A stretch of DNA of 64,000 nt from a virus: the IMG/VR virus record IMGVR_UViG_3300003322_001323, positions 10,534-74,533 of that record; one strand, given 5' to 3'. Made by a program: the position numbers and the translations under genes. Positions 15,921 to 17,630 of this stretch are shown in pieces; the stretch's first letter is position 1, and every line of letters begins with the position of its first letter. The notes beneath the pieces were generated by a model, which made no database searches, had not been told where the DNA came from, and was given only the letters and a program-made list of their open reading frames with translations.

Positions 15921-16129
15921 CCGTCCACCATCTTCGTTAGATGCCGCGCCCGCGCCGTTTCGCCACCTACATCGTGGAATGGACACGCCTTCTTGTGCGA
16001 GCCGCGCTGATAATAGTTCGCGCCGTTATAACCGCAAAAGACGCAGGGCGCCGCCAGCAGATTGCTAGCTAATACTGGCTCTAGCAACCGATCCAGTATG
16101 GCCTTAGCCTGTTTATTCAGCAGCTTCAC
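15917..16129 (-). CDS. Small zinc-binding hypothetical protein
   Basis: CVFC...H..AC; coupled. Confidence 0.6.
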   Translation of the reverse strand: MKLLNKQAKAILDRLLEPVLASNLLAAPCVFCGYNGANYYQRGSHKKACPFHDVGGETARARHLTKMVDG

Positions 16130-17630
16130 TTTCCACCTCCTCGCTCTCCAGCTCCGCCTCCAGGGACCGCTTCACGGTGAAGGGCAGGAGCTCGGCCGGG
16201 AACTTGCGCACCTCCGGAACGGCATCCTTGCCCTTGAGCAACTTGAGGTTCCGGCGCTGCGTGGACACGTCGGCCTTGCTCACGAGGCTCTCCGGCCAAT
16301 GGTGCTTGACGATCGCCACCAGCTGGTCGATCGTGAAGCGGTCCAGCATGATGAGTTCCTGCAGGTAGCGCATGCGGCCCTGCTTGCGATCAGGCTCGGG
16401 GATCGGCGCACCCACCACCAGGTTCGCCACGGGCACCTCCACGCGGCGCCGGTTGCCCTCCCCCTGACTTTTGGCTCGTGGCGCGCCCTCAAAGCGAGCG
16501 GCCGGAATGTGCTGAACCAGCTCACGGTCAGGGGGGAGCTCGTGAATGTGGGGGTGCCCGTCGGCCGGCGGCTCGCGCAGCTCCACGTGGAAGACGCTAG
16601 GCTGCGACGTCTTCTTGCCGTCGCGAATGGCGCCGGCCACAACGCCGCCGAGCCAGGAGCCGATCGGTGGGCAGACGCCGCGCGCGATGAGGGAGAAGGC
16701 GGCATTGGCGGTCGTGGCCATGAACTCGTAGTCCGGCGGGAAGCCGCAGAGCGCCGCGCCCTCGTTGACGGTAATGAAGCGCTTTTCGGTGGGATGAATG
16801 AGGGCGTAGCCCACGAAGGCGTCGGCCGGCCGGTCCACCGGCAGGCGGCGATGGCCGAAGCTGGGCCGGCCGATGATCTGGCCCTGCGCGCCGCGCTGCC
16901 ATTTTTCCTGCGGCACGAAGCGCTCCCAGTAGTCGCGCACCTTCTCGCCGGGCTCCATCTCGAAGTAGGTGTTGTTCAGCCACTTGGCGACGAGCGGCTC
17001 GATCTTCACCGTCCAATCCAGCCGGGTCGGCGTGACATCATTTAAACATTCCAGCGCGGTCCTGGGCGGAGCCCAGTTGGGCAGCGGCCACGCGATGGCG
17101 ACCTTGGAGCAGATCATGAAGAAGCGCTTGCGCGACTGCGCCACCCCGTGCCACTTGGTGTCGTGCAGCACGTAGTAAACGTTGTAGCCCAGCGCCAGGG
17201 CGCGGCGCTCTAGCTCGCGCAGCACCTCCTGGCCCTTGCCGTAGGCCTGGGTCACGCTCTCGGTCGCCCAGACGGTGGGCTTGAGTTTTTCCAATAGCTC
17301 GAAGTGCCGCACGGTACACTGCACGCGGGGGTCGGTCCGCCACTTGTCGGCGCCGCGGGTCTTGGTGTAGCCGGCTACCGACCAGGCAGCGCACGGCGGG
17401 TTGCCGTAGATGAAGTCGAGCTCGGAGAACTCCGGATCGTCCACGGGCCATTCGGAGTTGGGATAGTGGATGGGCAGGTCCGGATAGTTGCGCTGGACCG
17501 TGGCCACGCCATAGTCGCTCTCCTCGAAGTGGGCGAGCACCTCAAAGTGCTCGCGCACCCCGATGGAGAAGCCGCCGGCAAAGACGTTGGCGGCGAGGGC
17601 GCGAAGGGGCTTGAGCTTTTTCTTGGTCAC
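16113..17630 (-). CDS. C5 cytosine DNA methyltransferase-fold enzyme, divergent, with C-terminal HTH-like domain
   Basis: VFAGGF (I), GNPPC (IV), TESV (VI), QSRKR (VIII), RFITVNE..ALCGFP (IX), IARGV (X). Confidence 0.88.
   Translation of the reverse strand: MTKKKLKPLRALAANVFAGGFSIGVREHFEVLAHFEESDYGVATVQRNYPDLPIHYPNSEWPVDDPEFSELDFIYGNPPCAAWSVAGYTKTRGADKWRTDPRVQCTVRHFELLEKLKPTVWATESVTQAYGKGQEVLRELERRALALGYNVYYVLHDTKWHGVAQSRKRFFMICSKVAIAWPLPNWAPPRTALECLNDVTPTRLDWTVKIEPLVAKWLNNTYFEMEPGEKVRDYWERFVPQEKWQRGAQGQIIGRPSFGHRRLPVDRPADAFVGYALIHPTEKRFITVNEGAALCGFPPDYEFMATTANAAFSLIARGVCPPIGSWLGGVVAGAIRDGKKTSQPSVFHVELREPPADGHPHIHELPPDRELVQHIPAARFEGAPRAKSQGEGNRRRVEVPVANLVVGAPIPEPDRKQGRMRYLQELIMLDRFTIDQLVAIVKHHWPESLVSKADVSTQRRNLKLLKGKDAVPEVRKFPAELLPFTVKRSLEAELESEEVESEAAE

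Follow-up and report, generated by a model that had tools for sequence, protein, structure and literature searches.

SpCmoX, a protein of Synechococcus phage S-B43, makes 5-carboxymethylcytosine (5cxmC) from carboxy-S-adenosylmethionine (Cx-SAM) and is represented by PDB entry 8YF3 (Yang et al., Nat Commun, December 2025, PMC12783734). Its Arg350 replaces Asn304 of M.HhaI and contacts the carboxymethyl group; the wild type takes Cx-SAM only, and the R350N variant is inactive (PMC12783734). In S-B43 the cofactor is supplied by the phage's CmoA and the ligase CmoY adds glycine, and when SpCmoX is expressed in Escherichia coli the CmoA of that host suffices for detectable 5cxmC (PMC12783734). The same study defined 5,615 CmoX sequences by an SPPC motif together with R350 and found 4,257 CmoA sequences on the same contigs (PMC12783734). 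Engineered enzymes, M.MpeI N374K and M.CviPI Y205K/R, have gained Cx-SAM use and kept the use of S-adenosylmethionine (SAM), which in E. coli exceeds Cx-SAM about 400-fold (PMC13288465). Here we analyse a gene for a protein related to cytosine C5-methyltransferases that lies in a 64,000-nucleotide stretch of viral DNA (positions 10,534 to 74,533 of IMG/VR record IMGVR_UViG_3300003322_001323, hereafter the window), itself part of a complete viral genome of 74,533 bp with terminal repeats. An earlier interpretation made from the letters alone (the sequence-only reading) had noted an arginine at the conserved asparagine of motif X in this protein and had deduced from it an enzyme that uses carboxy-SAM. 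That deduction is chemically sound, yet it had already been published: the Asn-to-Arg carboxy-SAM concept came with CmoX in December 2025 and is not new. We find that the gene represents a large, virus-only clade that probably operates in a T4-like pathway replacing deoxycytidine (dC) with a 5-substituted dC, 5-hydroxymethyl-dC being the likeliest.

The closest homologue of the protein is 87% identical over its full length. In a Pfam scan, residues 18–323 match PF00145 (E=4e-23; profile positions 10–314 of 324), and the AlphaFold2 model of residues 1–345 has the C5-methyltransferase fold, its top Foldseek matches being M.HaeIII, plant MET1, the prophage enzyme 3g7u and 8YF3 (probability 1.0 for M.HaeIII, MET1 and HhaI). 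The catalytic residues of the C5-methyltransferase superfamily are present (C80, E124, R167 and R169). By sequence alignment, the set of SAM-binding motifs appears incomplete, with Glu36 of motif II kept, Phe17 in motif I, no conserved motif III Asp, and Arg317 in motif X. The assignment of an arginine to the conserved Asn of motif X, and its codon, could be confirmed. HMMER aligns the segment SLIARGV with KMIGNAV of M.HaeIII and with the motif X GN of DNMT1, and MAFFT places Arg317, Arg350 of SpCmoX (sequence from GenBank MN018232) and the Asn of four canonical phage enzymes in one column. The sequence-only reading had also described motifs I and VI as atypical and the catalytic PC as intact, and Phe17, ESV and Cys80 agree with that description.

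A search of 1.8 billion representative proteins recovered 348 family members at E<=1e-30, and a word-index search for relatives gave 78 matches; the residue counts that follow were taken over 215 aligned members. The motif X site holds Arg in 170 of them, Gln in 25 (12%), Lys in 20 and Asn in none, and the substitution is thus not a chance event, since R, Q or K but never N is found across these relatives. Cys80, Glu124, Arg167 and Arg169 are invariant (215/215). The flanks of these residues are nearly so: in motif IV N77 occurs in 211 and A81 in 206 members, with Ser at position 77 in none, motif VI retains S125 in 212 and V126 in 214, and motif VIII retains Q165 in 208. Position 17 of motif I is F in 178 members and Y in 29, G19 and G20 are conserved, and the ribose-binding Glu36 is kept in 206. 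The target-recognition region is conserved family-wide.

Judged by these alignments, the residues predicted to surround C5 and the transferable group have been remodelled (Gln to Ala after the Cys, ENV to ESV, and motif X Asn to Arg, Lys or Gln), and the adenine side of the putative cofactor pocket has been rebuilt with retention of the ribose-binding Glu. The published Cx-SAM contacts of SpCmoX make the second point residue by residue. E47 corresponds to Glu36 and R350 to Arg317, and the three adenine contacts among the five (F25, F48 and D69) are not conserved: F25 is Asn15 here and Tyr in most relatives, F48 is Glu37 here and E, D or G in relatives, and D69 has no counterpart in the family. 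In a maximum-likelihood tree the family forms one clade, with a support of 100 in the Shimodaira–Hasegawa-like approximate likelihood ratio test (SH-aLRT), and the SpCmoX clade stands apart from the family, joined to the Asn-type enzyme of Aphanizomenon phage CL131 (SH-aLRT 98). An approximately unbiased (AU) test that held the family and CmoX together, with only five outgroups, returned p=0.39 and so does not reject this grouping. The Arg of the family likely had an independent origin, as the tree would have it and with the AU test at p=0.39. Four members (P0088, P0105, P0128 and P0151) contain an intein with a LAGLIDADG endonuclease, which in three of them (P0088, P0105 and P0151) sits between NPP and C of the catalytic motif; insertion at essential active sites is typical of inteins.

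The genes that accompany the family were counted within 10 kb at 80 related IMG/VR loci. A ThyA homologue occurs at 64 of the 80, with Asp177 and Asp169 in 63/63; the 16 loci without it are all truncated, and in two complete genomes the homologue lies across the terminal repeat. MazG is found at 59 loci, a deoxynucleoside monophosphate (dNMP) kinase at 54 and a deoxycytidine monophosphate (dCMP) deaminase at 52. A wider set of 80 distinct IMG/VR family genes, sorted by their motif X residue, gave the same association over a 10-kb neighbourhood: the Asp177 homologue is nearby in 68/80 (53/61 for R, 9/12 for Q and 6/7 for K), and the Asn177 form was found near none of the 80. The conserved order runs UvrD helicase, [class I methyltransferase], C5-like gene, MazG, a glycosyltransferase (GT)-like partner, dNMP kinase, ThyA-like gene and dCMP deaminase, and continues with DNA polymerase and [UDP-glucose dehydrogenase, NadE-like]. 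Thymidylate synthases (TS) with Asp177, phosphoribosyl-ATP pyrophosphohydrolase-type (PRA-PH) proteins and dCMP deaminases have been found experimentally on cytosine-modified contigs by MetaGPA (PMC8670742).

The GT-like partner is a protein of about 345 residues without a Pfam match, encoded just downstream of the C5-like gene at 50 of the 80 loci (e.g. L013:11409-12449); in 13 representative proteins (P0079, P0080 and P0090 among them) it forms one chain with the C5-like domain. It was modelled as a GT-B fold, for which T4 beta-glucosyltransferase is the second-ranked match (TM score 0.54). The downstream gene had at one stage been taken for a tandem Cys-less paralogue, a clustering artefact that we rejected, the protein being an unrelated GT-B protein that is fused in some phages. 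In 24 of 53 long forms the fusion is to a class I methyltransferase domain, for which UbiG, an O-methyltransferase, is the nearest solved relative, and in two it is to the helical domain of 5-hydroxymethyldeoxyuridine (5-hmdU) DNA kinase (HMUDK_hel); the HMUDK-fused protein P0063 had distant matches only in the IMG/VR scan. MazG and uracil-DNA glycosylase (UDG) domains are also found fused to the C5-like domain, the latter as a family-4 UDG domain in P0052. Known enzymes of the types to which the GT-like, UbiG-like and 5-hmdU-kinase-like partners belong act on hydroxyl groups.

Just after the DNA polymerase, 21–23 relatives also have a UDP-glucose/GDP-mannose dehydrogenase together with a NadE-like PP-loop amidotransferase (L057:15597-16367, L054:9570-10841). 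We considered the NadE-like enzyme, present in 21 relatives, as evidence for a carboxymethyl-amide ligase and found it poor, and because it co-varies with UDP-glucose dehydrogenase (21/23 loci) a uronic acid is the more probable carboxylate substrate. The dehydrogenase and NadE-like pair points to a uronic-acid or uronamide sugar on the DNA of those relatives. In a second subgroup of relatives the place of this pair is taken by an epimerase/dehydratase together with a class I methyltransferase that stands alone.

In the phage itself, the gene lies in the early/replication block, within a group of nucleotide-metabolism genes that comprises ThyX, dCMP deaminase, a ThyA-fold protein, a P-loop kinase, a MazG-like protein and a phosphoesterase (Table 1). 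Among solved structures the ThyA-fold protein matches the CMP 5-hydroxymethylase MilA best (E=2.7e-21), and its segment VYDVFNF aligns with PFNIASY of TS. Asp at position 177 is the mark of dCMP specificity. D169N is the criterion for the 5-hydroxy-dCMP synthase type (PMC13326640), and the retained Asp169 argues against that type here. From the ThyX gene the phage is predicted to make its own deoxythymidine monophosphate (dTMP). The C-terminal half of the kinase protein is UDG-like by its motifs, for which Pfam gave no confirmation, and the kinase of most relatives has 191 residues and no such extra half. The sequence-only reading had argued that the enzyme needs unmodified C and that this favours deamination as the role of the neighbouring operon; this we found unsupported, given the linked ThyA homologue with Asp177 and Asp169 and the T4 beta-glucosyltransferase-like partner in relatives.

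Table 1. Positions in the window of the gene under study, its domains and motifs, and the annotated genes of the same block.
Feature	Position	Strand	Basis and remarks
Whole gene	16113..17630	-	505 aa: C5-cytosine methyltransferase-like domain, linker, small C-terminal domain; from open reading frame (ORF) list
C5-methyltransferase-like catalytic domain, residues 1-345	16596..17630	-	AlphaFold2 pLDDT 91.4, pTM 0.90
Motif I, NVFAGGFSIG, residues 15-24	17559..17588	-	Alignments; Phe17 in place of the first Gly of canonical FxGxG
Motif IV, NPPC, residues 77-80, in GNPPCAAWS	17391..17402	-	Catalytic Cys80, then Ala81 (canonical: Gln)
Motif VI, ESV (canonical ENV), residues 124-126	17253..17261	-	Family alignment
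Motif VIII, QSRKR, residues 165-169	17124..17138	-	Family alignment
Arg317 codon, motif X Asn position (M.HhaI Asn304, SpCmoX Arg350)	16680..16682	-	Alignments
Small C-terminal domain, ~residues 418-476	16203..16379	-	tblastn of relatives' extensions; seen in alignment consensus
ThyX-type thymidylate synthase	10258..11214	-	phrog_85 E=6e-73; PF02511 above cut-off at 10711-11160
Dam-like N6-adenine DNA methyltransferase, same block	11722..12291	-	phrog_111 E=3e-17
dCMP deaminase	12257..12766	-	PF00383 E=9e-15; phrog_174
ThyA-fold gene, dCMP-type hydroxymethylase or methylase	12721..13689	-	Asp at Asn177 position, Asp169 kept
P-loop (d)NMP kinase-like N-terminal half	13617..14648	-	phrog_761 'thymidylate kinase' E=2e-8; 343 aa
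MazG-like (PRA-PH) nucleotide pyrophosphohydrolase	14887..15375	-	PF01503 E=3e-13; best solved match DR2231 MazG-like enzyme

Several further observations concern the window and the occurrence of the family. The small domain at the C-terminus of the protein (about 45–55 residues) is repeated at 18407-18647 and 19670-19870 on the minus strand, at the C-terminal ends of ORFs 18358-19203 and 19647-20411; many relatives also have it between the C5-like and methyltransferase domains, and it matches DUF6465 weakly. The stretch 23802-24401 (minus strand) weakly matches nucleoside 2-deoxyribosyltransferase (PF05014, E=4e-5), short of the Pfam cut-off; this fold includes (hydroxymethyl)CMP N-glycosidases. 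The genes at 26804-27763 and 28213-29271 (minus strand) encode homologues of gp34 and gp33 of cyanophage Pam3 (PF23977 and PF23984), which with a gp32-like gene in relatives form a conserved trio beside an SNF2 helicase across the phage lineage. Hundreds of 50%-identity clusters make up this large clade, which is restricted to viruses and absent from cultured phages. It is nearly absent from 185,579 prokaryote species genomes, where only three contigs of metagenome-assembled genomes have it, and no close member was found among 50,697 cultured-phage records, in which the best tblastn match has 26% identity. Judged by DNA polymerase, Dinoroseobacter phage R5C and Pseudanabaena phage Pan1 come closest among isolates (about 38%). 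DNA of the window was present in one root-metagenome run (2016, contigs), and no RNA run was listed.

We tentatively favour, with somewhat less than even confidence, a covalent C5/C6 enzyme coupled to the hydroxymethylcytosine pathway, its reaction and cofactor left unspecified. The enzyme would flip a cytosine-type base out of the phage DNA, and Cys80 would attack C6. A post-replicative reaction at C5 or on the 5-CH2OH group would then follow, in which either 5-hydroxymethylcytosine (5hmC) is derivatised or leftover C is 5-substituted, and Arg317 might serve as the hydrogen-bond or charge partner of the group at C5. A more specific form, which we hold to be possible but doubtful, is a new class of hypermodification enzyme with a covalent Cys–C6 intermediate and a cofactor that is neither SAM nor Cx-SAM; such an enzyme would derivatise 5hmC or place a hydroxyl-bearing C5 group onto residual C, and its product would pass to the fused or adjacent glycosyltransferase, O-methyltransferase or kinase.

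Several points weigh against the coupling to 5hmC. We know of no natural enzyme that uses C5-methyltransferase chemistry on 5hmC, and the sole precedent on 5hmC known to us is an in vitro side reaction of methyltransferases. Arg or Lys at the motif X site and a small residue after the Cys are also seen in Cx-SAM users, and conservation of Glu36 (206/215) and of the Gly-Gly of motif I suggests that an adenosyl-type cofactor is still bound. No homologue of the GT-B partner was found in this genome, and no glycosyltransferase among the 20 early-region proteins scanned; the phage lacks the fusion and partner domains of its relatives, the UbiG-like domain included, and has only the small C-terminal domain. 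That C is fully replaced in the DNA of this phage is something we infer. The genome moreover strongly avoids several 6-bp palindromes, observed against expected counts being 3 against 18.5 for TGATCA, 0 against 9.2 for GATATC, 0 against 9.7 for GGATCC, 6 against 22.3 for ACCGGT and 1 against 9.8 for GTCGAC, so that its DNA may lack full protection from restriction. With GCGC and AGCT over-represented, the palindrome picture is ambiguous.

The protein could instead be a CmoX-like C5-carboxymethyltransferase that receives Cx-SAM from a host CmoA, with Arg317 forming a salt bridge to the extra carboxylate of the cofactor, an explanation that we regard as rather unlikely. It draws on the alignment of Arg317 with Arg350, whose carboxymethyl contact and inactive R350N variant are documented (PMC12783734). 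The precedent named in the sequence-only reading, M.MpeI N374K, is supported by the K/R variants of M.MpeI and M.CviPI, which gain Cx-SAM use and retain SAM activity as well (PMC13288465), and a second one, Dcm N436K, was not found in the literature searched. Ala81, where canonical enzymes have Gln, parallels Ser99 of SpCmoX, the ribose-binding Glu is conserved, the E. coli CmoA is enough for detectable 5cxmC with SpCmoX, and the AU test allows a common clade with CmoX (p=0.39). The supply of the cofactor speaks against it. The earlier statement that no CmoA is visible in the window holds, and extends to the rest of the 74,533-bp genome: TIGR00740, which as a positive control finds SpCmoA in S-B43 (E=2.5e-34), has no match in this complete genome, nor in any of 49 related viral records (13 with a completeness of at least 90%), so that CmoA occurs in 0/50 family-bearing viral genomes, compared with 4,257 CmoA per 5,615 CmoX contigs in the published set. 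We rejected the fused class I methyltransferase domain of relatives as a hidden CmoA, since NCBIfam gave only UbiG and a weak CmoB and no TIGR00740, BLAST against SpCmoA gave E values of at least 5e-4 over the Rossmann part only, and the nearest solved structure is UbiG. Asn-synthetase (PF00733), NAD-synthetase-type (PF02540) and ParB (PF02195) profiles had no match in this genome, which thus lacks a CmoY-type ligase and ParB, and no carboxylate ligase is specifically linked to the gene among relatives. The roughly 400-fold excess of SAM over Cx-SAM in E. coli also counts against it. F25, F48 and D69 lack conserved counterparts, Phe replaces the first Gly of motif I, and the tree sets SpCmoX with an Asn-type cyanophage enzyme. 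The R, K and Q forms share one gene context, Gln makes up 12% of the family, and glutamine is unable to form a salt bridge, which counts against Cx-SAM. The linked dCMP-C5-modifying ThyA homologue, finally, would remove the C5-H substrate from the phage DNA. Of the earlier proposal of a natural writer of 5cxmC, the arginine at the position of SpCmoX R350 stands, but most of the other characteristics of CmoX are absent; the gene is not a clear CmoX, and its identity as a carboxy-SAM enzyme is not established.

A 5-methylcytosine methyltransferase of the ordinary, SAM-dependent kind, with an unusual motif X and acting on unreplaced cytosines or at particular sites, would need no special cofactor gene, and the intact catalytic motifs, the full-length PF00145 match and the SAM activity that engineered K/R variants keep are all compatible with it. 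We nevertheless judge it unlikely. The near-universal Asn is kept in 0/215 members, several pocket-lining residues have changed in concert (F for G in motif I, A for Q, S for N, and no motif III Asp), and the natural SpCmoX, with its Arg, rejects SAM; plain methylation would also leave the strict coupling to the hydroxymethylcytosine module and the fusions to hydroxyl-acting enzymes unexplained. A weapon against host DNA is a further alternative, and to our minds an improbable one: with the phage cytosines blocked at C5, a C5-directed transferase or cross-linker would hit only the host DNA that contains C. The universal coupling to a C5-blocking nucleotide pathway would then give the phage self-immunity, and the virtual absence of the family from cellular genomes and prophages, the family-wide conservation of the target-recognition region and the location of the gene in the early/replication block would all fit. 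The fusion or tight adjacency to a DNA glycosyltransferase-like enzyme, whose expected target is phage DNA, fits a shared pathway better, no sequence feature speaks directly for host DNA, and we know of no precedent for a weapon of this kind.

If the clade does work on or with 5hmC, as in the reading that we favour, phage DNA hypermodification would gain a new enzymatic step, with natural methyltransferase-fold chemistry diverted from methyl transfer that could serve the labelling of 5hmC or C in epigenomics. If it is instead a second carboxy-SAM enzyme, shaped independently and reliant on host CmoA, the reach of 5cxmC would extend beyond phages that carry cmoA.

The protein can be set beside four described systems. 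With the canonical C5-methyltransferases M.HaeIII and M.HhaI (PF00145) it shares the fold and motifs IV, VI (Glu) and VIII, and M.HaeIII is its best solved-structure match by both sequence and fold; it differs from them in the replacement of the motif X Asn, Phe for the first Gly of motif I, absence of the motif III Asp, PCA for PCQ and ESV for ENV, as well as in having no paired restriction enzyme and belonging to a virus-only family. SpCmoX is likewise phage-encoded and has the same fold, PPC cysteine, motif X Arg, ribose-binding Glu and a small residue after the Cys (Ser99; Ala81 here) in place of the Gln of canonical enzymes. In contrast to those likenesses, the identity of the family to SpCmoX is only 22–26%, the family profile gives 8YF3 (8e-23) no better a score than M.HaeIII (8e-25), NPPC and ESV stand where SpCmoX has SPPC and ENV, and R, K and Q are interchangeable at the Arg350 position; the gene is embedded in a dCMP-hydroxymethylase module without CmoA, CmoY or ParB. 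The M.MpeI N374K and M.CviPI Y205K/R mutants have a cationic side chain at the structurally equivalent site but are single-site variants of otherwise canonical enzymes, whereas this family has many pocket changes and, in some members, Gln. The hydroxymethylcytosine set of phage T4 consists of the dCMP hydroxymethylase gp42, the dNMP kinase gp1, the dCTPase gp56, the deaminase cd and beta-glucosyltransferase; to our knowledge it has no C5-methyltransferase homologue. In contrast to T4, this phage has no detectable glycosyltransferase. The genes around the one studied here nevertheless follow the logic of the T4 set, with a ThyA homologue of the Asp177 type, a P-loop kinase, a pyrophosphatase of the MazG type and a dCMP deaminase, and its relatives add to these a GT-B enzyme that resembles T4 beta-glucosyltransferase.

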